Shown one piece after another: positions 2,524 to 24,088 of a stretch of 64,000 nt of DNA. A program made the translations under genes and the position numbers. Within the stretch, counting starts at the first letter, position 1. Every line of letters starts with the position of its first letter. This DNA comes from a virus. The notes under the pieces were generated by a model that was not told where the DNA came from, searched no databases, and worked only from the letters and a program-made list of their open reading frames with translations. The stretch lies in IMG/VR virus record IMGVR_UViG_3300024999_000002; one strand, 5' to 3'.

Positions 2524-3699
2524 ATGATCTTTTTTGTATCAAAACAGAAAAGAGTTTTTGCTGATACAATACAAGAAAGAACAATACAAGACTGTCTAGC
2601 ATATTTTGAGAACATTAATGAAATTGCCGTAGATACGGAAACTCAAGGGTTCGACCCACATACAAAGAATGTCCTATCAATCCAGATAGGACATTTTGAA
2701 AATCAGTTTGTGGTTGACTGTACAACAGTTAATATAGCACAACTGAAACCTTTATTAGAAAATGAAAATAAAGTATTCTTATTTCACAATGCAAAGTTTG
2801 ATTTAAAATTCCTTTATAAGCATAACATATACCCTAAGAAAGTATATGATACGTTTTTAGCAGAGTGTATTCTTACAACTGGATGGGAAGAAAGAGAACT
2901 TTCATTAAAATGGGTAGCTCACAAGTATTGTGGGGTTACTCTGGACAAATCAATACGTGGTACTATACACATAGAAGGATTAACTGATAGAGTTATAGTC
3001 TATGGTGCAGATGATGTAAAGTATTTACCACTTATTAAGGAAAAACAATTAGTGCAAATAGAACACTTCAATTTACATAACCTGTTAAGGCTTGAAAATG
3101 AAGTTGTAAAAGTATTTGCAAGAATGGAGTTCAATGGAGCTCCGTTGAATAAAGTGAAATGGCAAGAAGTATCTGAGCAAGTTGAAACTAATGTCAAGGC
3201 ACTTGAAGAACAAATGGATGCCCTTATTTATACTCATGGAATAAAAGATTTACCTAAAGCAAATGTACTCACTAAATATTGTGAGATATATAAGCAAGGT
3301 AATATGTTCTTTGATGATAAACAAAGAGATTGTAATATCAATTGGAGCTCACCAGCACAGAAAACTAAATTATTACAAGACTTAGGTCTTAAAGTTACTT
3401 CAGTTGATGATAAAACATTACAGAAATTAAAAACACAACATCCAATTGTACCTTTATTAATTACATATTCAAAACAAAATAAATTAGCAACATCCTTTGG
3501 TAAAGATTTTCTTAAATTTGTTAATCCTGTAACTGGTAGAGTACATGGCAATGTCTGGCAAGTGCTTTCAACCGGCAGGATAAGTATCTCAGAACCAAAC
3601 ATTAACCAGATTCCGAGTCATGGACCTTTGGCAAAACTAATTCGAGCGTCTTTTGAAGCTCCGAAAGGTTATAAATTTGTTGGAGGTGATTATAGTGGT
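2524..3699 (+). CDS. Family A DNA polymerase, exon 1 (3'-5' exonuclease domain and N-terminal polymerase up to motif A ...GGDYSG)
   Basis: Exo motifs AVDTETQG and FHNAKFDLKF. Sequence ends at DYSG, the first half of motif A (compare T7 DASGLELR). Downstream residues RKNKLNFIW... look non-coding. Confidence 0.85.
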
Positions 3700-3721
3700 A
3701 GAAAAAATAAATTGAATTTTA

Positions 3722-3753
3722 TTTGGATTATAGAGTATTTATTCTTATATTTA
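3722..3753 (+). promoter_or_regulatory. Host-type promoter for the intron ORF
   Basis: TTTG(3722-3725)-N20-TATATTTA(3746-3753), 19 nt before ATG 3773. Confidence 0.45.
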
Positions 3754-3772
3754 CAAATAAAATTAATAAATT

Positions 3773-4561
3773 ATGTATTTTAATGAAAAGAAAATAATTG
3801 AAGACTATTTAAATGGTAAAAATACTAAGCAAATAGCAATTGAACTTAATACCTACAACACATCAGTTAGACGCGTATTGCTGCGTAATAATATTAGATT
3901 AAGAAGTCAATCAGAGGCACAAGTTAAAACTGTGAATAACTTTTTAGATTTGTCTAATGAAAATGTGCAATATTGGCTTGGATTCCTTGCTGCTGATGGT
4001 ACTGTGGGTAAAAAAGATTTTTTAGTCTCTCTAGAACTTCAAAGAAAAGATTTAAATCATTTACTTAAATATTGTAATTTTATAGGAATATCTTATAAAA
4101 CTATAAAATACCCTAAATATAACACAGTAGGATATAGGGCTAATTTTCGTAATAAAGAAGTAAATTTATATTTAAAGGCGCTAGGAATTACTGATAATAA
4201 AAGTAAAACTATTAAAATAAATTTTAATTTTAATAGACATTTTATTAGAGGAGTTTTTGATGGTGATGGATATGCTAGACTTCTTTCCGAAAAAAGAGGA
4301 GCCTATGAAATAGCTACTATGAGTTTAGATTTTAAAAATCAATTATCAACTTTTTTTAATAATAATAGTATTAAACATACTGTAACTTTACGAAAAGATG
4401 GAATATTTCTAATAGGAATATATACCCAAAATGAAGTGAAAAAATTTTATAACATAATTTATGATAATGCTACAGTATTTCTTGAAAGAAAGAAAGCTGT
4501 TATATGCCCTCTATATGAAGAAATTCAATTAGATGCAAAACTTTCAAATTCGGTGAACTAA
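3773..4561 (+). CDS. Double-motif LAGLIDADG homing endonuclease with N-terminal HTH
   Basis: YWLGFLAADGTV and FIRGVFDGDGYA motifs; paralog of the 22356-23147 ORF. Confidence 0.85.
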   Translation: MYFNEKKIIEDYLNGKNTKQIAIELNTYNTSVRRVLLRNNIRLRSQSEAQVKTVNNFLDLSNENVQYWLGFLAADGTVGKKDFLVSLELQRKDLNHLLKYCNFIGISYKTIKYPKYNTVGYRANFRNKEVNLYLKALGITDNKSKTIKINFNFNRHFIRGVFDGDGYARLLSEKRGAYEIATMSLDFKNQLSTFFNNNSIKHTVTLRKDGIFLIGIYTQNEVKKFYNIIYDNATVFLERKKAVICPLYEEIQLDAKLSNSVN

Positions 4562-4682
4562 GCATGAGAATACCGAGCCAAGACATTAGAAATAATGTAA
4601 GGTGTACAGACTAGACGGAAGTTACCTAAGTACATATAGTGTATAAGGTTAAGGTATAGTCGAAACAGAACAAAACTGTTTG

Positions 4683-5390
4683 ATGGAGTTAAGAATTATA
4701 GCAGAATTTAGTCAAGATCCTTTATGGCTTGAAGTATTCAAAAGAGGTGGAGATTTGCACTCCGAATTATGTGCAGCTACCTTTAAAATACCATTGAGTG
4801 ATGTTAAAACACCTTTCCCACCTAAGCCAAGTTTTACATACAGAGATGTACAGAAGACGGTCGACTTTGGGTTAGCCTTCGGAATGTCAGAATTTAAATT
4901 ATCTGATACAATACAAGTTCCGGTAGATAAAGCCAAACAGATCATCAAAGACTTCTTTAAAATTGTTCCAAAAGTGGAACAGTTCTTAAATAAGTTAGGT
5001 GAATTAGGTAAGGCAAGAGGTTTTATAGCCACTCCAGAACCTATGAAAAGAATTCGTTGGTTTCAACAATGGGAACATGCAGTAGAAACTAAAGATTTTA
5101 GAGTAATGGGGGAAATTGAAAGACAATCAAAAAATTTCCCAATACAATCAACGAACGCTAATATTACTAAGCTGGCCATGTGCAACTTACAATACCTCAT
5201 TGATAAAGATAATTTACCTGTACAAATTGTAATGCAGGTATATGATGAACTTCAATGTATTGTTAAAGAAGAATTTGCAGAAGAATGGAAAGTAATCTTA
5301 GAACAAGAGATGATTAAAGCAGCACAAATAATAATAAAAACAATCCCAGTAGAGGTAGATTGCAAAATTTCCTCGCATTGGCAAAAATAA
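4683..5390 (+). CDS. Family A DNA polymerase, exon 2 (second half of motif A, motifs B and C)
   Basis: MELRIIAEFSQD; RDVQKTVDFGLAFGMS (motif B); QVYDELQ (motif C). Confidence 0.85.
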   Translation: MELRIIAEFSQDPLWLEVFKRGGDLHSELCAATFKIPLSDVKTPFPPKPSFTYRDVQKTVDFGLAFGMSEFKLSDTIQVPVDKAKQIIKDFFKIVPKVEQFLNKLGELGKARGFIATPEPMKRIRWFQQWEHAVETKDFRVMGEIERQSKNFPIQSTNANITKLAMCNLQYLIDKDNLPVQIVMQVYDELQCIVKEEFAEEWKVILEQEMIKAAQIIIKTIPVEVDCKISSHWQK

Positions 5391-5397
5391 TAAACAC

Positions 5398-5772
5398 ATG
5401 GAAGAAACTTTTATAAAACCAGAAACAGCAAAACTTGCTAAGTTAAAAGGATTTGACTGGCCTGTACATCATTATTATCAAGGTGAACATGCAGAAGTTC
5501 AAATATGTGTTCCTGTTTATAATAGGAATCATTTTAAAAACCTTTATTCAGCGCCAACACAAAGTTTATTACAGAAGTGGATAAGAGAAAAGCATGGTAT
5601 AAATGTATTAGTATATACCGATGATACCTTATCTTTCTTTTGGCAAATTCAATCAGCACATCCAGCAGCAAGTTACTTAGGTAATACCTTATATAGCAAT
5701 AATGTTTGGTGTGGTAATTATGAAGATTGTCTTGAAGATGGGTTATTAACAATACTTAAACTCATACCATAA
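5398..5772 (+). CDS. Hypothetical protein, member 1 of a tandem paralog pair
   Basis: Shares ETAKLAKLKGF and SLLQKWIREKH with the next ORF. Confidence 0.6.
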   Translation: MEETFIKPETAKLAKLKGFDWPVHHYYQGEHAEVQICVPVYNRNHFKNLYSAPTQSLLQKWIREKHGINVLVYTDDTLSFFWQIQSAHPAASYLGNTLYSNNVWCGNYEDCLEDGLLTILKLIP

Positions 5773-9453: not shown

Positions 9454-9983
9454 TGTCTGAATTAAGTATTAATTTAGATAAGTTACAGGAGTCTGGGCTG
9501 TTCATAGAAGAGTTTGTATATTTACAAATGATTAATGACGGCCTAGAGCCTGAGGCTTATAAGATGAGTGACAAAAATGCTCTTCAGCATCTGTCTGAAG
9601 GGTTATGGATTAAACCTACTGAAGGTGGATGGGAATTGCGATCAAAAGCAGTAGCCTTATTCACGGTAGTTTCCATGGTAAATTTTGATGAGTTTTGGGA
9701 CGCATTCCCCATAACAACTCCAAAAGGTAGAACTCTGCGTGCAGGTTCTAAAGAATGGGGTGGAAAACCTACCAGAGATTATCTGGTTTGTAAGAAGAAA
9801 TATCTAGCTAAAATAAAAGATAAAGAATCACATGATAAGATTGTGGCTATTATCAAAGCTAGATTATACAGTGGAGATTATGAATATATTAATAATCTCG
9901 AAACATATATTAATCAAGAAGTTTGGCAGAAAGATGTCAAATACTTAAAGAACGAGGGGGACTGGGCACACCAGAGAGTATGA
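9453..9983 (+). CDS. Hypothetical protein, possibly a replication accessory
   Basis: 176-aa ORF translationally coupled (ATGA) to the helicase gene. Confidence 0.5.
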   Translation: MSELSINLDKLQESGLFIEEFVYLQMINDGLEPEAYKMSDKNALQHLSEGLWIKPTEGGWELRSKAVALFTVVSMVNFDEFWDAFPITTPKGRTLRAGSKEWGGKPTRDYLVCKKKYLAKIKDKESHDKIVAIIKARLYSGDYEYINNLETYINQEVWQKDVKYLKNEGDWAHQRV

Positions 9984-11092
9984 GTGAATTATTTGATAGC
10001 GTATTTAACCAGATACTTGAAAACAAGTCTCTGCGTGAACAAGGTAAAGATATCTGTATTCCTTTCCCATTTCCAAGATTCTCCGCTGAGATCCCTGGAA
10101 TTCAGAAAGGTAGATACTATATTGTAACGGCAAATAGTAAAGTGGGTAAGACTCAAATATGTGATTTTTTGTTCATGTATGGCCCTTACAGTTTTACTAA
10201 AAATAATAACACAAACATAAAAATACGCATAATTTACTTCACATTAGAAATGTCCAAAGAGGATAAAGTCAAACAGGCTATATCCCATTTTTTATTTATT
10301 TTAAAGGGAATAAGAATCCACCCAGATAAAATGGATTCAATATTTAAAAATTACATACTAGAAGATCCATTAGTACAGGCTATTGAAGAAATTAAGCCTT
10401 ATGTATCAGATTTTCTAAGTCGTGTTACATTCATTGACCACACAAGAAATCCGTATGGAATATACAAAGCAGTACGAGAGTATGCACATGCGCATGGACA
10501 CTATATAGATAAAGAAGGAACCACATTAAATACAGAATGGATTGAATCGGGATTTAATGAAGAGGGTAAAAAAATCTTCCAATATGTTCCTAATGATCCA
10601 GATGAATTTGTAATTGTAATAACTGACCATGTCAGTTTATTAACTCCTGAAAAAGAAGGAACATTACATGAAGCTATTGGTAAACTTTCATCAAATTATT
10701 CATTACATATCAGAGATAGATGGAAGTATATTGTAGTAAATGTGCAACAACAGGCAGCTGCACAAGAAGGTGTAGAAAATGCCGCTGCTAATATGATCAG
10801 ACCATCAGCGAATGGATTAGGAGATAACAAGCTAACTGGCAGAGATTGTGATATGATGCTTGGATTATTTGCTCCTATTAGATTCAGACGTGCTGAATGG
10901 GAAGGTTATGATATCAAAAGGCTCAGAGATGCTTATAGAGAATTATCTGTCATATTAAACAGAAGAGGTAGTGCAGTCCTAACAGACGTGTACTTTGATG
11001 GTTGTGTAAACTATTTTGCCGAATTGCCTACCTCAAATAAAATGACACCAGAAATGTATAAAGCTGTCGAAGAGCGTAGAGTAAGACCTTAA
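9980..11092 (+). CDS. DnaB-like / T7 gp4-like replicative helicase (RecA-fold)
   Basis: Walker A ANSKVGKTQ and Walker B-like VIVITDHVSLL. ATG 9980 overlaps the upstream TGA. Confidence 0.7.
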   Translation: MSELFDSVFNQILENKSLREQGKDICIPFPFPRFSAEIPGIQKGRYYIVTANSKVGKTQICDFLFMYGPYSFTKNNNTNIKIRIIYFTLEMSKEDKVKQAISHFLFILKGIRIHPDKMDSIFKNYILEDPLVQAIEEIKPYVSDFLSRVTFIDHTRNPYGIYKAVREYAHAHGHYIDKEGTTLNTEWIESGFNEEGKKIFQYVPNDPDEFVIVITDHVSLLTPEKEGTLHEAIGKLSSNYSLHIRDRWKYIVVNVQQQAAAQEGVENAAANMIRPSANGLGDNKLTGRDCDMMLGLFAPIRFRRAEWEGYDIKRLRDAYRELSVILNRRGSAVLTDVYFDGCVNYFAELPTSNKMTPEMYKAVEERRVRP

Positions 11093-11179: not shown

Positions 11180-11944
11180 ATGAATAAAGAGAATGTATTA
11201 GTTAAAATTTATGAATTAAGAGATCCTAGAGACTTAAAATGTAGCCCTAGATATATTGGAATTACAGTAAAAAAATTAGAATATAGACTAAGTTTACATT
11301 TAAATAAAAAAGGACTGCAAATAAAAACATATAAAAACAATTGGATAAAGTCTTTACTAGAAGAAAATATTAAACCGACTATACACTTGATTGAAGAAAT
11401 TCAAGGTTGGGAATACGCTTGTAAAGTTGAAAAATATTGGATTAAAGAATTCAAGAAACAAAATTATAAGCTTACCAACGGTACTCTAGGCGGTGAAGGT
11501 GGAGGAGGGTGTGGTAGAATATGGACAAAAGAAAGTAAAGAAAAAGCAAGTAAAACAAGAATAAAATTACTTTTAAATGGTAAGTTAACAATACATAGAA
11601 AACCACACTCTGAAGAAGCTAAAAGAAAAATGTCTGAAAGTCACAAAGGAAAAGTCTTTTCTGAAGAGTATAGAAAAAATATATCCATTGCTAAAAAAGG
11701 AACAGTATGCCAAGAAAATAAAAAATTACGACAAAAAGAAAATAGATCTGAACCAATGATTGTAAAATATGATAATGGAATTATAAAAGAATTTTCTAGT
11801 GGTGCAGATTGTCGTAAAAGCTTAAAAATAGCTGAAATTACTTATTATAAATGCCTAAAATCTAATGGTTATTTAAAAAAGAAAAAACTTACAATCTCTT
11901 TTAAAAATCCAAGAAAAAGAACTTCATTTAAGTTAAACGAATAA
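11180..11944 (+). CDS. Free-standing GIY-YIG homing endonuclease with NUMOD3-like repeats
   Basis: IYELRDP...RYIGIT (GIY-YIG); repeated HSEEAKRKMSESHKGK and SEEYRKNISIAKKG. Confidence 0.8.
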   Translation: MNKENVLVKIYELRDPRDLKCSPRYIGITVKKLEYRLSLHLNKKGLQIKTYKNNWIKSLLEENIKPTIHLIEEIQGWEYACKVEKYWIKEFKKQNYKLTNGTLGGEGGGGCGRIWTKESKEKASKTRIKLLLNGKLTIHRKPHSEEAKRKMSESHKGKVFSEEYRKNISIAKKGTVCQENKKLRQKENRSEPMIVKYDNGIIKEFSSGADCRKSLKIAEITYYKCLKSNGYLKKKKLTISFKNPRKRTSFKLNE

Positions 11945-13763: not shown

Positions 13764-14894
13764 ATGGAAGCACAGATCGTAGTGGGACTCGGTTTTGGGG
13801 ATGAAGGCAAAGGCAACTTTACTAGTTATCTTTGTAATGAACACAAAACTGAAAAACCTTTAGTTATAAGATTCTCAGGAGGCCAACAAGCAGGTCATAC
13901 TGTAATGTATAAAGGTAAAAAACATATATTTTCTAACTATGGTAGCGGCACTCTTCAAGGAGTAGCCACACATATTTCTGAACATTGTTCTTTCTATCTT
14001 AATACAATGGCTGTGGAGAGAGAGATATTAAAGAAAACTTTTAATATCAATCCCATCTTAAGTGTGCATCCTTTAGCTATGGTAACCACACCTTACGATG
14101 TAGCTTTTGGTAGACTTAGGGAACGTACTGTTAAACATGGTAGTTGTGGGTTAGGTATTGGTACTACTGCTGCTAGACATACTAATACAGGCTTTAAGTT
14201 ACATGCAATAGACATGGAACATAAAGGCATTTTCGGAGTAAAACTTGCTAATATTAAGGAGTATTACGCCGATAAAGCAGCACAAATGGGAACAATTGCT
14301 CTGGATGAGTACATGGCAGAGGTTGATCGTCTTGAACAAGATTACTTCGACCTTATAAACAAAGAACTCTTTACAATCAAGAATAATGATGAGGCCACTG
14401 ATAAGGCAGAGACTCTTATCTTCGAGGGATCACAGGGAATAATGTTGGACAAGGATCATGGGATATTTCCTAATGTTACTTATGCCAATACTACTTCTAA
14501 GAATGCAGTACAAATCTGTAAAGAATTAGAAGTTCCATTCTCAATTAACTATATCACAAGGTGTTATCAAACACGTCATGGGAATGGTTGGATGAGTAAT
14601 GAGAACCCTGTAATCCTAATGAATGATGAAGAGGAAATTAATAAAAGTAATTCTTGGCAGGGAGATTTCAGAACTGCAGAACTTGATTATGATCTTTTAA
14701 ACCTTGCAATTGGAATTGATTTCAGTTATTGTGGAGGTGTAGAAAATACTAATCTAGTAGTTACTTGTTTAGATCAAATTCCAGGGATAGAGTTTGAAGA
14801 ACATAAGATCATTTATGAAATAGATGAAATTTATGAATCTCACTCTCCCGAATCAACAAAGATCAAGGCTCTTGTAGGGTCATTAATGCGTTAA
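13764..14894 (+). CDS. Adenylosuccinate synthetase family enzyme (PurA/PurZ-like), short and divergent
   Basis: GFGDEGKG P-loop, GGQQAGHT, GLGIGTT, FEGSQG, TRHGNG. The GxxTGRRRR loop is replaced by SWQGDFRTAELD. Confidence 0.85.
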   Translation: MEAQIVVGLGFGDEGKGNFTSYLCNEHKTEKPLVIRFSGGQQAGHTVMYKGKKHIFSNYGSGTLQGVATHISEHCSFYLNTMAVEREILKKTFNINPILSVHPLAMVTTPYDVAFGRLRERTVKHGSCGLGIGTTAARHTNTGFKLHAIDMEHKGIFGVKLANIKEYYADKAAQMGTIALDEYMAEVDRLEQDYFDLINKELFTIKNNDEATDKAETLIFEGSQGIMLDKDHGIFPNVTYANTTSKNAVQICKELEVPFSINYITRCYQTRHGNGWMSNENPVILMNDEEEINKSNSWQGDFRTAELDYDLLNLAIGIDFSYCGGVENTNLVVTCLDQIPGIEFEEHKIIYEIDEIYESHSPESTKIKALVGSLMR

Positions 14895-14942: not shown

Positions 14943-15242
14943 ATGGAAAGAGAAAAGATTAAGTTAAGTAATGAAGAGTGGTGTAATTTAGTTTGGGAAA
15001 ACTATATTAATCTTGACGGAGTAGAGGTTTCATTTACAGAAATACAATCTAATTATGATGGTAGTAGAAGACATACTGAAGATCATCATAAAATACTAAA
15101 GAGAAATATTGATGGTAAATTCTTTAGAGTTGACTATGAAACTTCTGTAAAAGATGAGATGGGATGGAGTGAATGCAATAACGGTGATACTGAAGTAATT
15201 GAAGTATTTCCGCAAGAAGAAATCAAAATAATTTATAAATAA
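14943..15242 (+). CDS. Hypothetical protein
   Basis: 99-aa ORF. Confidence 0.5.
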   Translation: MEREKIKLSNEEWCNLVWENYINLDGVEVSFTEIQSNYDGSRRHTEDHHKILKRNIDGKFFRVDYETSVKDEMGWSECNNGDTEVIEVFPQEEIKIIYK

Positions 15243-15985
15243 TGGAATTACCTACAGGTATAGTTAAGGCTCTACATAAAAGCCCTAGAAGATTATTAAT
15301 TTACAGTCCACCTAAATGTGGTAAAACCACAGCGGTATCTTTTTTACAAAATTCGTTAATTGTAGATTTGGAAAGAGGATCTGATTTTTTAGATGCTGTA
15401 AAAGTAAGTGTTAATAATCTAGATGATATAAAGGAACTTATTGCTGCAGTCAAAAAAGCAGGCAGACCTTATAAGTATGGTATTATAGATACCACTACAA
15501 AATTAGAAGAAATGGTGCTTCCTTATGCCGCCAAATTATACAGGGATACCCCGATGGGTAAAAATTGGGAAAAACTTCCAAATGGTGATCCTAATCCTAA
15601 TGTTAGTATTTTATCATTACCTAATGGAGGTGGATATCTATATTTAAGAGAGGCTTATACAGCCGTATCTACTGCATTAGACGCTTGTTTTGATCGTGTT
15701 ATATATTTAGGGCATTTAAAAGACAAGATGTTGGAAAAGAATGGCAAAGAAGTTTCGGCAAGGGACATTGATTTAACAGGTAAGATTAGAAATATTGCTT
15801 GTGCTAATGCTGATGCCATAGGCTATATGTATAGAGAAGGTAATAAAACAATGTTATCTTTTAAAACATCTCAAGATGTTATATGTGGAGCACGCCCAGA
15901 ACATTTAAGGGATAAAGAAATAACTTTATTAGAATATAATGATGGTAAATTTACCAATCATTGGGATGAAATTTACATAGATTAA
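15242..15985 (+). CDS. Sak4-like / AAA_24 RecA-fold recombination ATPase
   Basis: Walker A YSPPKCGKTT; IIDTTTKLEE; IYLGHLKDK. Confidence 0.6.
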   Translation: MELPTGIVKALHKSPRRLLIYSPPKCGKTTAVSFLQNSLIVDLERGSDFLDAVKVSVNNLDDIKELIAAVKKAGRPYKYGIIDTTTKLEEMVLPYAAKLYRDTPMGKNWEKLPNGDPNPNVSILSLPNGGGYLYLREAYTAVSTALDACFDRVIYLGHLKDKMLEKNGKEVSARDIDLTGKIRNIACANADAIGYMYREGNKTMLSFKTSQDVICGARPEHLRDKEITLLEYNDGKFTNHWDEIYID

Positions 15986-16005: not shown

Positions 16006-16037
16006 CTTGTTTATGTTAGACTTATTAATTATATTTG
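16006..16037 (+). promoter_or_regulatory. Host-type promoter for the free-standing LAGLIDADG gene
   Basis: CTTG(16006-16009)-N20-TATATTTG(16030-16037), 14 nt before ATG 16052. Confidence 0.4.
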
Positions 16038-16051
16038 TAAAAATATTAATT

Positions 16052-16645
16052 ATGAGTTTAATAGGAAACATTGAAATTACCCAAGAACAGAAGGAAATTC
16101 TGTTTGGTACATTATTAGGAGACGGAAACCTAAGATATAATGATAGCGGTAAAAGTGTATTTGGCAGAATGAATCATTCTGCCTCACAAGAAGAATATAT
16201 AAAATATAAACAGAGTAATCTTGCAAATCTAACTAGTAATGTTAAGTCTTATAAGGCTAAAGCTGGATTAAAATATTATGATAGTTTATATTTTACATTT
16301 AAATCTAATATACAATTAAACTCTTTATATCATGTTTTTTATGATGTGAATGGTAAAAAACATATTCCGGACGACTTAAGTTTATTAACTCCACGAGCTA
16401 TGGCTTTTTGGTTTATGGATGATGGTACAGCTTCAAATCCTACTATAAAAATAGCAACTTGTTGTTTTTCTATGTCAGATTTACTTAGATTACAAACATT
16501 TCTATCTGAGCAATATGGTATAGATACAGTAATAACAGGAGAAAGAAAGTTGTACTTTAAAGCAAAAACTAAGAAAATTTTTAAAACGTTGGTAGACCCT
16601 TATATAATAGAGTCTATGCGTTATAAACTTAAATTTATTAAGTAA
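16052..16645 (+). CDS. Free-standing LAGLIDADG homing endonuclease
   Basis: LLGDGNL and FWFMDDGT motifs. I prefer ATG 16052 because the tracked TTG start at 16007 lies upstream of the -7 box. Confidence 0.8.
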   Translation: MSLIGNIEITQEQKEILFGTLLGDGNLRYNDSGKSVFGRMNHSASQEEYIKYKQSNLANLTSNVKSYKAKAGLKYYDSLYFTFKSNIQLNSLYHVFYDVNGKKHIPDDLSLLTPRAMAFWFMDDGTASNPTIKIATCCFSMSDLLRLQTFLSEQYGIDTVITGERKLYFKAKTKKIFKTLVDPYIIESMRYKLKFIK

Positions 16646-20508: not shown

Positions 20509-21723
20509 ATGATATATTATCCAGATTTTCTTAAGTTTAAAGAATCAGAATTACAAGCACACTTAGAAGAGCACAATAAATTTGTAGCTCCAGGTGGTCT
20601 TGTAGTCTACAATAATGAGATAGCTGAAATATATGGAAGAGCAAAGCCGTACTTGTTGATAAAAACTGAAAATAACAATATAATGCAGGTATATACTTCA
20701 GATGCCCCTTTGCTTACTATAGACAGGTTTAACCGGCTAAAACTTTATAGAAGAACAAGACAACTACGTGGAAATTATAAATTTATGTGTGCAGTCCTAA
20801 AAAGAATAGCACATCAAATTTATGGAGAAAATCGCGTAGATATTATACTAGAACCTGGCGCCAGAAGAATACAAATTATTATACACTATCCCGAAATTGA
20901 AATAACAAATAGTACAGGTACAAAACACATAATCAAAGATTTATATATACGACATCATTTTGTTAACACTGAGGCCATGGGTATACAATTAGCCGGACAA
21001 GCTGCTCTTAAGACTACCTACAGTAATGGAGAAATTCAAAGATCATATTTACATTCTCACATTTCTAATAATGGTCTAGGAAGTTGGAGTAATAGTTTCT
21101 GTTTTGGCTCTACTACATTTGCACAATTTATACAGAATGTTAGACAACGCGGAGAGATGAATCAAGCAGATATATATCAACTATTCTTTGGGATGGATGA
21201 GTATCTCAAGTGGGAAAGTATAGAAGGCACTCCTTATAACAGGTTGAATGATATTATGGAATTTACCAGTGAATCATATTCTGTTAGTTACAGTAATGAT
21301 TTAGCGGAGAAAGCCTATGCCCATGTTGTCCAAAATTTAGAAAACTTTGAGTACAGTATCACTATGCGTAATAATGAAGTACGTATTGAAATAACAACTT
21401 CATTAGAAAGTGCTTTAAGTAATTTCCTAGAAACTTCTGGGAGAAAAGATTTAATACTAAGAGTACATAATGGAAGTCCAGTAAGGGTAGTATCTGCCGG
21501 CAGATCAAATAGTAGATATAACAACACGAGATTAGACTTCACATTTAAAGGTGCAAGACAAGTCTTAAAAGTTGATTATGATCGTGGAAGTCCAGAAGCA
21601 ATAGAAAGGTTGCACCCTTTAAGAGTGTACCCACAATTCTATATTGCAGTAAAAGTAAAGTTAGAAAATAAATTTGAAACTTTCTTAAGTGAAAAACAAA
21701 AACAAACACAACAAGCACAATAA
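20509..21723 (+). CDS. Hypothetical 404-aa protein with an H-S-H...C motif (speculative E2-like)
   Basis: YLHSHISNNGLGSWSNSFCFG (H182, H184, C198) follows a beta-rich segment, reminiscent of the UBC HP(N/H)...C motif. Located between the Ubl-like and JAB genes. Confidence 0.35.
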   Translation: MIYYPDFLKFKESELQAHLEEHNKFVAPGGLVVYNNEIAEIYGRAKPYLLIKTENNNIMQVYTSDAPLLTIDRFNRLKLYRRTRQLRGNYKFMCAVLKRIAHQIYGENRVDIILEPGARRIQIIIHYPEIEITNSTGTKHIIKDLYIRHHFVNTEAMGIQLAGQAALKTTYSNGEIQRSYLHSHISNNGLGSWSNSFCFGSTTFAQFIQNVRQRGEMNQADIYQLFFGMDEYLKWESIEGTPYNRLNDIMEFTSESYSVSYSNDLAEKAYAHVVQNLENFEYSITMRNNEVRIEITTSLESALSNFLETSGRKDLILRVHNGSPVRVVSAGRSNSRYNNTRLDFTFKGARQVLKVDYDRGSPEAIERLHPLRVYPQFYIAVKVKLENKFETFLSEKQKQTQQAQ

Positions 21724-21724
21724 A

Positions 21725-22084
21725 ATGGGTAAACATAGCACACATGTGATAACACCCGCAAAACCATTTGTTAAGAAGGAACCAGTTCCTACAAAAACAT
21801 TAGGTAACGTAGGTAAAATTTTCATTTCTGAGGAATTGAAAAAACAAATTGACTTTCTACATAAGAAGATAGGAAGCATAGAGTGGTCGGGAGTTCTAAT
21901 TTATAAGCATACAGGTGGAGAAATTAAAGACCTTAAAGATCTTGAATTCCACGCAACTAATATGTTCTTAATGGACATTGGTACAGGAGCTTATACTGAA
22001 TTTAATTATAATGAGCAAATTGTAGCTATTTATGATGTAATACCAGAGGCAATGGAAAGTGCTACTGGACTAATTCACACGCAT
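21725..22084 (+). CDS. JAB/MPN (JAMM) metallopeptidase, exon 1
   Basis: Conserved Glu (IEWSGVLIY); ends ...GLIHTH, the HxH of the JAMM motif. ATG 21725 directly follows the upstream stop. Confidence 0.8.
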
Positions 22085-22355
22085 TAAAATGAATGGTGCA
22101 GCCTTAAAGTAATTTAAGGTAAAAAATATCGGATGAACTCAGGGAACGGAGATAAAGTGACCAATCCTGAGCCAAGCTAAAGATTAAATGTCTTTAGAAG
22201 GTGCAACGACTAGGTATTGAAACTAAATAATGGAAAGTTCTTCTAATGGAATAGGAAATGTCTCCCAGAAAGGAGCAGAATATAGGTTTGAGTCCTATAC
22301 TTTCTACTAGATTATTTAGAATATAATATACCCACGAGCGTCCGACATCCTATCA

Positions 22356-23147
22356 CTAGGATGATGATATAGTCTGAACTTTAGGATACTTTAAAATAAG
22401 TTTTTCAATTCCTTGATTAAACTTATTAATTTTTCTTGTTAACTTAAAAGGAGAGTTATTATAAATTAAATAGAATTTATATACTTCTTCTTTCTTAGCA
22501 AAACTTAATATCCACGTTTTGTTAAAAAATAATGAATAATTTTGTAAATTTAGAGAATCGGCAATACCCTTTAATAACTCTTCAGTACCTCTGATAGATA
22601 CTCGAATAGTTGTTATATTAGGATTGTTGCTTACATGAATACAGCCATCTCCATCTAAATAACCTGATATAAAACTTCCATGAAATTCATTTGGGATATT
22701 TAATAAGATATTAGTTAGAGTTTTGGATTTTCTTTGTGTAATTCCTAAATTTAATAAATCATTTACTAGTAATGGATTAGATAATGTAAATCTAACCATT
22801 TCATTATTAGGAAATGTAAGAACTTTTTCACAACCAATTTCTTGTCTAAGCAATTCTAAAACTTCTGTATCAACTCTATTTATTTGAATACCTAGAGTAA
22901 CAGAGGAAGAATTGGAACGTACAATATAACCATCTGCAGCAATAAATCCTAGTAAGTAGGCCTTTGTAGCAGAATCTATATTCTGAAAATATCGTATATT
23001 ACCTTGATTAGACCTATAATATATGGAATATTTTTGCAATATGTAGGTTACGGACGAGTATTTTATATTAAGTTCTTTAGAAATTTGAATGGGAGTTTTA
23101 CCATTCTCTGCTAGAGATTTAATTAAATTATGGTCATGAATTTGCAT
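22356..23147 (-). CDS. Double-motif LAGLIDADG homing endonuclease with N-terminal HTH, antisense to its host gene
   Basis: YLLGFIAADGYI and FISGYLDGDGCI. Same architecture and length (263 vs 262 aa) as the 3773-4561 ORF. Confidence 0.85.
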   Translation of the reverse strand: MQIHDHNLIKSLAENGKTPIQISKELNIKYSSVTYILQKYSIYYRSNQGNIRYFQNIDSATKAYLLGFIAADGYIVRSNSSSVTLGIQINRVDTEVLELLRQEIGCEKVLTFPNNEMVRFTLSNPLLVNDLLNLGITQRKSKTLTNILLNIPNEFHGSFISGYLDGDGCIHVSNNPNITTIRVSIRGTEELLKGIADSLNLQNYSLFFNKTWILSFAKKEEVYKFYLIYNNSPFKLTRKINKFNQGIEKLILKYPKVQTISSS

Positions 23148-23163
23148 ACAAAATTATTTTTAA

Positions 23164-23195
23164 CAAATATAAGAAAAATTTTATTCTAAAGCAAG
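23164..23195 (-). promoter_or_regulatory. Host-type promoter for the antisense intron ORF
   Basis: On the minus strand: CTTG-N20-TATATTTG, 16 nt before ATG (23147). Confidence 0.45.
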
Positions 23196-23224
23196 AATTT
23201 TAAAATATTCTTGATAACAAAAAG

Positions 23225-24088
23225 CATTCAATGGGGGCATTCCACAGTGGAACAGACTTAAGTGAATTAGAAGATAATGCCGGAGTATATAATTACTATG
23301 TATCTCTAGTTGTTAATTTTAAAGAAACTTATGTTTGTAAAATTGCTTTCCCTGCTACAGTAATCATTAATGAAACTAAACATAATGTAAGTACAATAAG
23401 AAACACCGATGGTACAATCATTCCATTTGAAGAAAAATCAGAAAAGAATGAGGAAAGAGTAATACATTATCTAGGAGATTTAGATGTAGTAATTGAATCT
23501 ACTCCTATAGAAATTTCAGAGTGGATAGAAGATAGGTATGCCGAAGTTAAGAAAGCAAAAGAAAAACCTGTATATGTACCATACACATCTTACTACGATA
23601 CTTTTAAAGCTGATAGAAGTGTTATAGGATTTAGAAAGGAGGAAGGGGGTGCAAAACTACCTATACCTACTTACAGACAACAAGCGTTAGGAGGGGACTT
23701 TCAAAGAGAGGACAGCGTCCTTGAATTTGAAGAGTACACCGCCGCGTCCTTCACGACTGCTAGAGAAGTTAGCAGAGATCCGAGCAAAACTATCAAATTA
23801 TTTGTAAATGCCGTAGTCTTTTCAGATTCTACTGTACCTTTAGATATTATTAAAGGGGTAGTAAATTTGAATCTACTGCCTGATGCAGAATTCCAATTAT
23901 ACTTAGACTTATTAGAGGCTAATATAGAAATTCTACATGACAATATTTATGGGCTAGGTAATGTTCATCTACTAAGACACTTAAAAGAAGTGGTAGTACA
24001 TCTAAGCGCTTATAAAAATGCCAAGAGAGTAGGACACATTGATAAACTAATTGAATTCTTAGACGATTATGGAACTCCAGCAACTTAA
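23225..24088 (+). CDS. JAB/MPN metallopeptidase, exon 2 plus a long C-terminal region of unknown function
   Basis: HSMGAFHSGTDLSELED completes the JAMM motif, in frame with exon 1. Confidence 0.8.
   Translation, partial: HSMGAFHSGTDLSELEDNAGVYNYYVSLVVNFKETYVCKIAFPATVIINETKHNVSTIRNTDGTIIPFEEKSEKNEERVIHYLGDLDVVIESTPIEISEWIEDRYAEVKKAKEKPVYVPYTSYYDTFKADRSVIGFRKEEGGAKLPIPTYRQQALGGDFQREDSVLEFEEYTAASFTTAREVSRDPSKTIKLFVNAVVFSDSTVPLDIIKGVVNLNLLPDAEFQLYLDLLEANIEILHDNIYGLGNVHLLRHLKEVVVHLSAYKNAKRVGHIDKLIEFLDDYGTPAT

Follow-up and report, generated by a model that had tools for sequence, protein, structure and literature searches.

Mobile group I introns are textbook elements of phages. The td, nrdB and nrdD (sunY) introns of phage T4, with their endonucleases I-TevI, I-TevII and I-TevIII, lie in conserved enzyme genes, loop the endonuclease gene out of a peripheral helix and carry an early in-frame stop, and in all of this they resemble the element described here. 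The T4 intron endonuclease genes have their own promoter, separate from that of the host gene, and the only antisense-oriented endonuclease gene in a review of T4 mobile elements is the free-standing segD (PMC2988022). Here we report on an insertion of 1,140 nt in a JAB/JAMM metalloprotease gene, found in a 64,000-nt stretch of viral DNA (IMG/VR record IMGVR_UViG_3300024999_000002; hereafter the window). The insertion, in a crAss-like phage, is very probably a mobile group I intron that carries its homing endonuclease gene (HEG) as an autonomous antisense cassette in the loop of helix P9. Whereas the endonuclease genes of the T4 introns read in sense and are of the GIY-YIG or HNH type, the gene in the JAB intron encodes a LAGLIDADG protein, lies on the opposite strand and overlaps the catalytic core in antisense.

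In the searchable literature, outside which most subscription journals lie, antisense HEGs have been reported only from nuclear ribosomal DNA (rDNA) group I introns of protists and a red alga. The protist cases are I-DirII and I-DsqI of Didymium (PMC3073962, PMC9548176), and a search for complementary-strand genes also surfaced the nuclear small-subunit (SSU) rDNA introns of Porphyra (PMC2585584). In Dir.S956-2 of Didymium iridis (I-DirII) and Dsq.L2066 of D. squamulosum (I-DsqI), an internal promoter of its own drives the antisense HEG, which occupies a loop of the P9 region, from the opposite strand; self-splicing is retained, and intron-less sites are cleaved by the enzyme (PMC9548176, PMC3073962). 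The JAB intron is alike in that its HEG is antisense inside a peripheral P9 loop; the box upstream of this HEG is a candidate promoter. The Didymium systems, however, involve nuclear rRNA genes, group IE/IC ribozymes, His-Cys box enzymes, a Pol II promoter, a spliceosomal intron and polyadenylation, whereas the JAB intron combines a protein-coding phage gene, a LAGLIDADG enzyme and a bacterial-type promoter box. The compartmentation between nucleolus and nucleoplasm that was proposed to separate sense and antisense RNAs in Didymium has no counterpart in the phage setting.

No characterised phage intron with an endonuclease gene running against the direction of its host gene was found in the searchable literature, and an opposite-strand intron-encoded endonuclease is not mentioned in reviews of bacterial group I introns (PMC3984707), T4 (PMC2988022) or organellar introns (PMC8393795), nor in a survey of crAss-like phages (Yutin et al., 2021; PMC7886860). 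The introns of that survey come from the same virus order and are likewise LAGLIDADG-bearing group I introns in core phage genes, a class of which the polA intron of the window (below) is an ordinary example. The hosts of introns or endonucleases that it names are the genes for the major capsid protein (MCP), PolB, primase, an ATPase (ATP_43b) and RNA polymerase (RNAP), and its text includes neither the JAB/metalloprotease gene nor an opposite-strand endonuclease (PMC7886860).

The interrupted gene lies on the plus strand. Exon 1 (21725-22084) starts with an ATG at 21725 and comprises 120 codons ending ...GLIHTH; its last base, T22084, completes the codon of His120 and is followed directly by TAA (22085-22087). 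The frame reopens at C23225 with HSMGAFHSGTD, and exon 2 (23225-24088) continues to a stop codon. When T22084 is joined to C23225, the result is a 407-aa product carrying HTHHSMGAFHSGTD, an exact H-x-H-x7-S-x2-D, with the insertion point in phase 0, behind the codon for the JAMM motif's second His. The metal-binding motif E...H-x-H-x7-S-x2-D is complete only with the exons joined, and its glutamate, E53 within EWSG, is invariant in a three-sequence alignment. Both exons are defined by translation and by alignment to gp77 of crAss001; exon 1 corresponds there to the N-terminal third of gp77. In addition, exon 1 as an open reading frame (ORF) matches phrog_21448, and exon 2 matches phrog_16107 from residue 117. 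The 407-aa product is colinear with the uninterrupted crAss001 gp77 (414 aa; tblastn E 2e-17) and its cr106_1 homolog, with zero gap at the junction, and full-length fused homologs are common among metagenomic proteins (e.g., P0077-P0079, coverage 96-99%). The best protein matches of the spliced product were from Crassvirales infecting Bacteroides and from phages of Flavobacterium, placing the window in a crAss-like phage context. On the strength of the motif and the homology to gp77, we assign the product to the JAMM/MPN+ proteins as a divergent member.

The insert begins with the in-frame TAA and ends with G23224 (22085-23224, plus strand). In a focused scan, the Rfam group I intron model (RF00028) matched 22096-22395 on the plus strand over its full length (model positions 1-253) with 63.6 bits against a gathering score of 50 (E 2e-15). 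A permissive scan of the whole window gave 53 bits for the same intron, and a whole-window scan at gathering thresholds missed both introns of the window, this one and a second in the polA gene (below), owing to speed filters. At the 5′ splice site, GCAU of exon 1 and the first intron bases UA (22081-22086) pair with UGGUGC (22094-22099), forming P1 with the internal guide sequence (22081-22099) and placing a U22084.G22096 wobble at the splice site. The guide bases UGAAUG (22090-22095) form a P10 of 6 bp with CAUUCA of exon 2 (23225-23230). The guide as a whole, UGAAUGGUGC, would thus pair both the end of exon 1 and the start of exon 2. An earlier, sequence-only reading of this DNA had proposed a group I intron splitting the JAMM active site, with the frame stopping after HTH and an in-frame joint of T22084 to C23225 recreating the motif, and had named an Infernal search with RF00028 as a check. 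The stop and the reopened frame are present as described, the motif is exact and aligns to gp77 without a gap, and the Rfam match and the splice-site pairings that covary with the exons identify the insert as a group I intron. That reading had also allowed for two separate genes whose relatives would lack an intronless fused homolog; crAss001 gp77 and many metagenomic proteins are uninterrupted and fused.

The remaining helices, all on the plus strand, were placed by the RF00028 alignment and by RNAalifold. A P2 hairpin, CCUUAAA-GUAA-UUUAAGG (22102-22119), appears in the Rfam alignment and is absent in most relatives inserted at site B (below). The catalytic core, from P3 through P8 and the 3′ strand of P7, spans 22129-22377 and contains P3 (22129-33/22341-45), P4/P5 (22138-44/22166-71), P6/P6a (22171-22202), the 5′ strand of the guanosine-binding helix P7 (within 22204-14), P8 (22346-52/22357-63) and the invariant 3′ strand of P7, GAUAUAGUCUG (22366-77). 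Between P7 and P3′ lies a peripheral P7.1-like domain (22213-22333) with an outer stem GGUA.../...UACC and an inner stem of CUAAAUAAU (22223-31) with AUUAUUUAG (22311-19). Directly after the P7 3′ strand, the P9 5′ strand CUUUAGGAUA (22379-22388) pairs with the P9 3′ strand UAUUCUAAAG (23182-23191) in a 10-bp helix that encloses the whole HEG ORF and its upstream region. The 3′-terminal domain (23192-23224) consists of a hairpin CAAGAAU...AUUCUUG (23192-23213), a conserved GAUAAC (23213-23218) and the terminal G23224. In this fold, a compact core with P3-P8 and the P7.1-like domain would occupy the first ~290 nt, and the long-range P9 would return the 3′ domain and the terminal G to it; splicing would then join T22084 to C23225 and give the 407-aa protease, as the structure and covariation indicate. 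When an artificial mini-P9 construct was folded, it took on an alternative pairing, which made it uninformative.

Covariation was assessed across 16 distinct introns of one family, which were obtained from relatives of the minus-strand protein and from DNA-pattern scans of IMG/VR. An IMG/VR scan seeded with the spliced JAB protein gave no match, the DNA-pattern scans working instead, and blastn of the insert against 50,697 phage records was likewise without a match. RF00028 scored 59.5-85 bits in the relatives, on the strand opposite the HEG. RNAalifold on the 16-intron alignment predicted P3, P4/P5, P6 and two peripheral helices, with compensatory double changes in 18 of 29 pairs, a sign of selection on the fold; both peripheral P7.1-like helices (alignment columns 142-145/256-259 and 151-154/244-247) covaried, with 6-9 double changes per pair in most pairs. 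P1 covaried with the end of the exon (GCAU/GUGC, UCCAU/GUGGA, AUUCAU/GUGAAU), the observed value being reached in 1 of 5000 permutations. P10 covaried with exon 2 (CAUUC/GAAUG, CAUAA/UUAUG, CACU/AGUG, UCACA/UGUGA, ACAC/GUGU), averaging 4.1 bp with an intron's own exon versus 1.7 bp with the exons of other introns, and none of 5000 permutations reached the observed mean. The first codon of the intron is an in-frame stop in all 16 (14 TAA, one TAG, one TGA), and the last base is G in all 16.

A long-range P9 is present in every family member, with 11 distinct 5′-strand sequences that always start one base after GUCUGA and 3′ strands that end 33-37 nt before the intron's 3′ end (16/16). As MAFFT could not register the P9 3′ strands consistently, this helix was examined by an anchored own-versus-other comparison with a shuffle test: helices formed with an intron's own tail averaged 7.56 bp, and the maximum among 2000 shuffles was 5.19 (0/2000 reached the observed value). 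The 3′-terminal hairpin also shows compensatory changes among relatives (UGAGAA/UUCUCA, UAGGUA/UACCUA, CCAAGG/CCUUGG), next to a near-invariant AUAAC. The boundaries of the intron, its ribozyme fold and the closure of P9 around the antisense LAGLIDADG gene are established by sequence and covariation together.

The HEG (22356-23147, minus strand) encodes 263 aa and fills the P9 loop, with its stop codon in P8. Its product matched Pfam LAGLIDADG_3 (35.2 bits) and LAGLIDADG_1 (31.2 bits) above their cut-offs, as well as phrog_4645 at 6e-38, and its motifs LLGFIAADG (D72) and ISGYLDGDG (D165, D167) are those of the two-motif, monomeric type. In 15 of 15 homologs (40-66% identity) LGFIAADG and GYxDGDG are kept; D72 and D165 are invariant and D167 nearly so, and these conserved acidic motifs argue for active enzymes. 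The gene is the only credible minus-strand gene within ~30 kb of plus-strand genes. Its last codons (..VQTISSS*) result from reading P8 and the P7 3′ strand in reverse complement, and most family HEGs have a QTIS motif near the C-terminus because their frame reads the complement of the P7 3′ strand. HEG and core overlap by 22 nt in the window, and across the first seven introns examined the overlap is 22-40 nt. Beyond QTIS, the C-terminal tail is variable among homologs, and a ~60-aa N-terminal extension of several relatives is absent from the window HEG.

Upstream of the HEG ATG by 24 nt, on the minus strand, lies TATATTTG (23164-23171), a candidate promoter box matching the consensus of the host: it fits TAnnTTTG, which we take to be the Bacteroidetes -7 promoter consensus. 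Of 14 HEG-bearing introns, 10 have a TAnnTTTG box at a distance of 9-38 nt upstream of the ATG of the HEG, in surrounding sequence that differs among them. At 106 matches per 128 kb over the two strands of the window, the background is low, with a chance of ~3% per 40-nt interval on one strand. Matches to sigma-70-type promoters in 21500-23500 were at chance level, and the conserved GAUAAC tail was rejected as a -33 element for the HEG, being too far from the -7 box. The sequence-only reading had placed a 263-aa LAGLIDADG ORF on the minus strand, in the 3′ three quarters of the insert and with its own promoter inside the intron. The ORF is confirmed by the Pfam and phrog_4645 matches, and a promoter-like box is present, from which the HEG would be transcribed. 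As to its position, the gene does lie inside the intron, but it fills the P9 terminal loop and its frame extends 22 nt into the catalytic core.

The antisense layout, with the HEG abutting the 3′ end of the group I core, was found in all 14 HEG-bearing family members examined. The antisense HEGs range in identity to the window protein from 67% down to ~40%, and that of one member, L183, is only 36% identical to family members. More distant relatives of the HEG (28-34% identity) are on the sense strand, several of them directly 5′ of a core (L071, L076, L211). Family members occupy three target sites, each with a 5′ exon ending ...CAU. At site A, after the second histidine of H-x-H in the JAB gene, are the introns of the window and of L007, L011, L019, L020 and L183; site B, 6 nt upstream and after the first histidine, is occupied in L015, L018, L153/L214, L162, L177 and L198. 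The third target, between YMH and SH in the neighbouring gp78-like gene, is occupied in L206 and L209, and its invasion suggests ectopic movement between neighbouring genes that share a ...CAU|UCNCA-like site. In the window, the gene upstream of JAB (20509-21723, plus strand) is intact and reads YLHSHIS at the L206/L209 insertion point.

The family also has introns with no HEG, of 259 nt (L171) and 271 nt (L182/L226). Their P9, at the same place, is a short local stem, which in L171 takes the form of a plain hairpin CUAUAUG-GCAA-CAUAUAG. It follows that the HEG cassette occupies the terminal loop of P9. In L171 (IMG/VR contig 3300000156_000113, sense ~5160-5760), the JAB gene seemingly has two introns in the JAMM motif, the HEG-less 259-nt intron at site B and a second core-like element a few codons downstream. 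The region of the motif there looks like an intron hot spot.

The rarity of the arrangement was gauged in two samples of phage group I introns. In the first, 85 cores retrieved by a generic core pattern, flanking ORFs were on the sense strand apart from 11 antisense ORFs of at least 110 aa; these 11, beside unrelated phage introns, were rejected as endonuclease genes, being 10 distinct sequences with no Pfam match. In the second, 231 cores with the same signature that are followed by 700 nt or more of sequence, 11 cores are abutted by an antisense ORF of 150 aa or longer. Eight of these belong to the LAGLIDADG clade of the window and three have no endonuclease motif. The clade of the window thus provides the only credible abutting antisense endonuclease genes among the 231 cores.

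The second intron of the window provides an internal control that shows the usual sense orientation. It splits a family A DNA polymerase gene (exon 1, 2524-3783; intron, 3784-4679; exon 2, 4680-5390), with exon 1 ending at position 160 of the Pfam PolA model and exon 2 resuming at 162, and matches RF00028 at 4491-4683 with 56 bits. Like the JAB intron, it combines a group I core with a homologous LAGLIDADG protein (29% identity to the JAB-intron HEG product, E 2e-13), but its ORF (3773-4561, plus strand) is in sense and 5′ of the core, whereas the JAB intron has its ORF in antisense within the P9 loop, 3′ of the core. The sequence-only reading had noted core-like elements shared by the two introns. 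Both do have group I cores, but the likeness is confined to generic motifs, comparison of the JAB intron core with the window by blastn and nhmmer showing no specific similarity to the polA intron.

At its tip, the peripheral stem between P7 and P3′ carries a tRNA-like cloverleaf (22232-22306, plus strand) within an insertion of ~90 nt. This insertion is confined to the window lineage, being absent from the 15 other aligned introns and from the closest relative, L230. The Rfam tRNA model scored 31.4 bits there (gathering score 29; E 3e-4), and the minimum-energy fold is a cloverleaf. The folding energy of the region was no better than that of shuffles (z = -0.89), which leaves it with no thermodynamic support. 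ARAGORN called 22232-22306 as a tRNA at relaxed thresholds only. The anticodon arm is aberrant, and this tRNA-like module is therefore unlikely to serve as a decoding tRNA. In an unrelated phage group I intron (L237; IMG/VR contig 3300029906_000002, 1375-1495), the same peripheral loop holds an insert of 89 nt in which an acceptor-like stem and a canonical T arm (GTTGG-TTCAAAT-CCAAC) can be made out; ARAGORN called the insert as tRNA-Met at a relaxed threshold only, and the Rfam tRNA model reported nothing on it.

Taken as a whole, the data fit an intron whose entire P9 loop is taken up by an autonomous opposite-strand cassette, made up of the -7 box TATATTTG, a short leader and the two-motif LAGLIDADG gene; this layout is observed, and its expression would follow from the box. 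Since the JAB pre-mRNA comes from the other strand, ribosomes cannot read the HEG from it, and the endonuclease must be made from an antisense transcript of its own. The endonuclease presumably cuts intron-less JAB alleles of co-infecting phages, after which repair would copy the intron in, as the distribution of the family suggests. In this way the family would have spread among diverged crAss-like phages and three related target sites, with HEG-less derivatives alongside. The antisense orientation would most likely uncouple HEG expression from transcription of the host gene and keep ribosomes out of the intron on the sense RNA, which they do not enter because of the in-frame stop at its first bases.

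Several points weigh against this account. The spliced product reached only 19 bits with Pfam Prok-JAB (PF14464), below the cut-off of 25 (E 0.0013), and crAss001 gp77 is annotated as a 'metalloprotease domain containing protein' and nothing more specific. Rfam's own P9 is a local hairpin (22379-22395), unlike the long-range P9 proposed here. A sequence search of the HEG product against solved structures gave no match, the TAnnTTTG box is missing in 4 of 14 HEG-bearing relatives, no terminator was predicted on either strand in 21500-23500, and the HEGs of L177 and L209 stop just outside the core. Self-splicing, the antisense transcript and its start site are what we infer from the sequence. 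With respect to ongoing homing in the window phage, no intron-less allele of its exact lineage was found; the exact spliced junction (ATTCACACGCAT joined to CATTCAATGGGG) was absent from metagenome and viral contig collections, and the best full-length homolog was 48% identical.

It is also conceivable, though unlikely, that the antisense arrangement is itself a regulatory device, an effect on splicing and JAB expression having been put forward in the sequence-only reading. Pairing of HEG mRNA with the JAB pre-mRNA, or head-on collisions of polymerases, would gate splicing and JAB expression, and conversely abundant JAB pre-mRNA could silence the endonuclease. The complementarity that this would draw on is built in, covering ~800 nt of the intron plus P8 and the P7 3′ strand, with the core overlap seen in the first seven introns; read-through into ribozyme antisense is likely given that the stretch from the HEG stop to the remainder of the core has no predicted terminator; phages that diverged long ago still share the layout; and a concern over antisense interference has also been raised for nuclear antisense HEGs (PMC9548176). 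However, conservation of the layout is explained equally well by descent from one ancestral insertion, and the core overlap is not universal, as L177 and L209 demonstrate, while the variable C-terminal tail past QTIS is as expected of passive read-through. In a more elaborate form, which we regard as quite unlikely, the reversed HEG would act as a sense/antisense switch in which HEG expression and JAB splicing antagonise each other and time the protease or the endonuclease, the tRNA-like module adding a signal for RNA processing or protein recruitment.

LAGLIDADG maturases are known in organelles, and the protein encoded here might no longer drive homing, being either an inactive remnant or a trans-acting splicing maturase. 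The intron looks fixed, in that no intron-less allele of the lineage was found, and the window HEG does not have the ~60-aa N-terminal extension of several relatives. Nevertheless, this seems very unlikely to us, as both Asp-containing catalytic motifs are invariant in 15 homologs, and the three target sites in diverged phages, together with coexisting intron-less and HEG-less states, are the pattern of an active homing cycle. Finally, gene callers annotate JAB as two ORFs, with an ATG at 23231 two codons into exon 2, and PHROGs assigns the two halves to separate families, but that JAB is permanently split by a free-standing endonuclease gene into two separately translated polypeptides, as some phage genes are, with the ribozyme-like sequence a relic, is scarcely credible, since a relic would not retain compensatory changes in P1, P10, P3-P7.1 and P9, the split separates H-x-H from S-x2-D inside the metal-binding motif, and HEG-less introns of 259-271 nt occur at the same place in other phages.

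Other genes of the window were also inspected. A ThiF/E1-like gene lies immediately downstream of the JAMM gene in the crAss001 and cr106_1 neighbourhoods, and the order of JAMM protease gene and then ThiF/E1-like gene is conserved from the window phage (21725-24740, plus strand) to crAss001 (gp77-gp76). The pair hints that the block of replication genes includes a module for ubiquitin-like conjugation or deconjugation. Directly downstream of it, a 360-aa phage protein (24742-25824, plus strand) has a ribosomal protein L7/L12 C-terminal domain (Pfam PF00542, 47.9 bits). Two further endonuclease genes are present on the plus strand, a GIY-YIG/NUMOD3 gene (11180-11944) after a DnaB-like fragment (9923-11092) and a LAGLIDADG_2 gene (16007-16645) after an AAA_24 gene (15242-15985). 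RF00028 had no match near either gene at 11-17 kb, and they may be free-standing homing endonucleases or marks of other gene interruptions. An ORF at 13764-14894 (plus strand) strongly matched adenylosuccinate synthetase (Pfam PF00709, 139.5 bits), a family that in phages includes PurZ, the enzyme for 2-aminoadenine (Z-base) DNA.

Phage group I introns are themselves known; the seemingly novel part is a family of them with a reversed homing endonuclease cassette. Both the JAB gene, which gene callers render as two 'hypothetical proteins', and its PHROGs families are split in current annotation and default Rfam settings miss both introns of the window, and such elements are therefore probably under-annotated in gut phage genomes. 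The family provides a natural system for studying how an intron and an endonuclease become associated, one candidate route being that a free-standing endonuclease cassette with a promoter invades an intron, and likewise for studying the separation of endonuclease expression from ribozyme folding and any regulation of splicing by antisense RNA in bacteria. With three target sites reached across diverged crAss-like phages, it indicates that reversal of the endonuclease cassette need not stop a phage intron from persisting and moving on.

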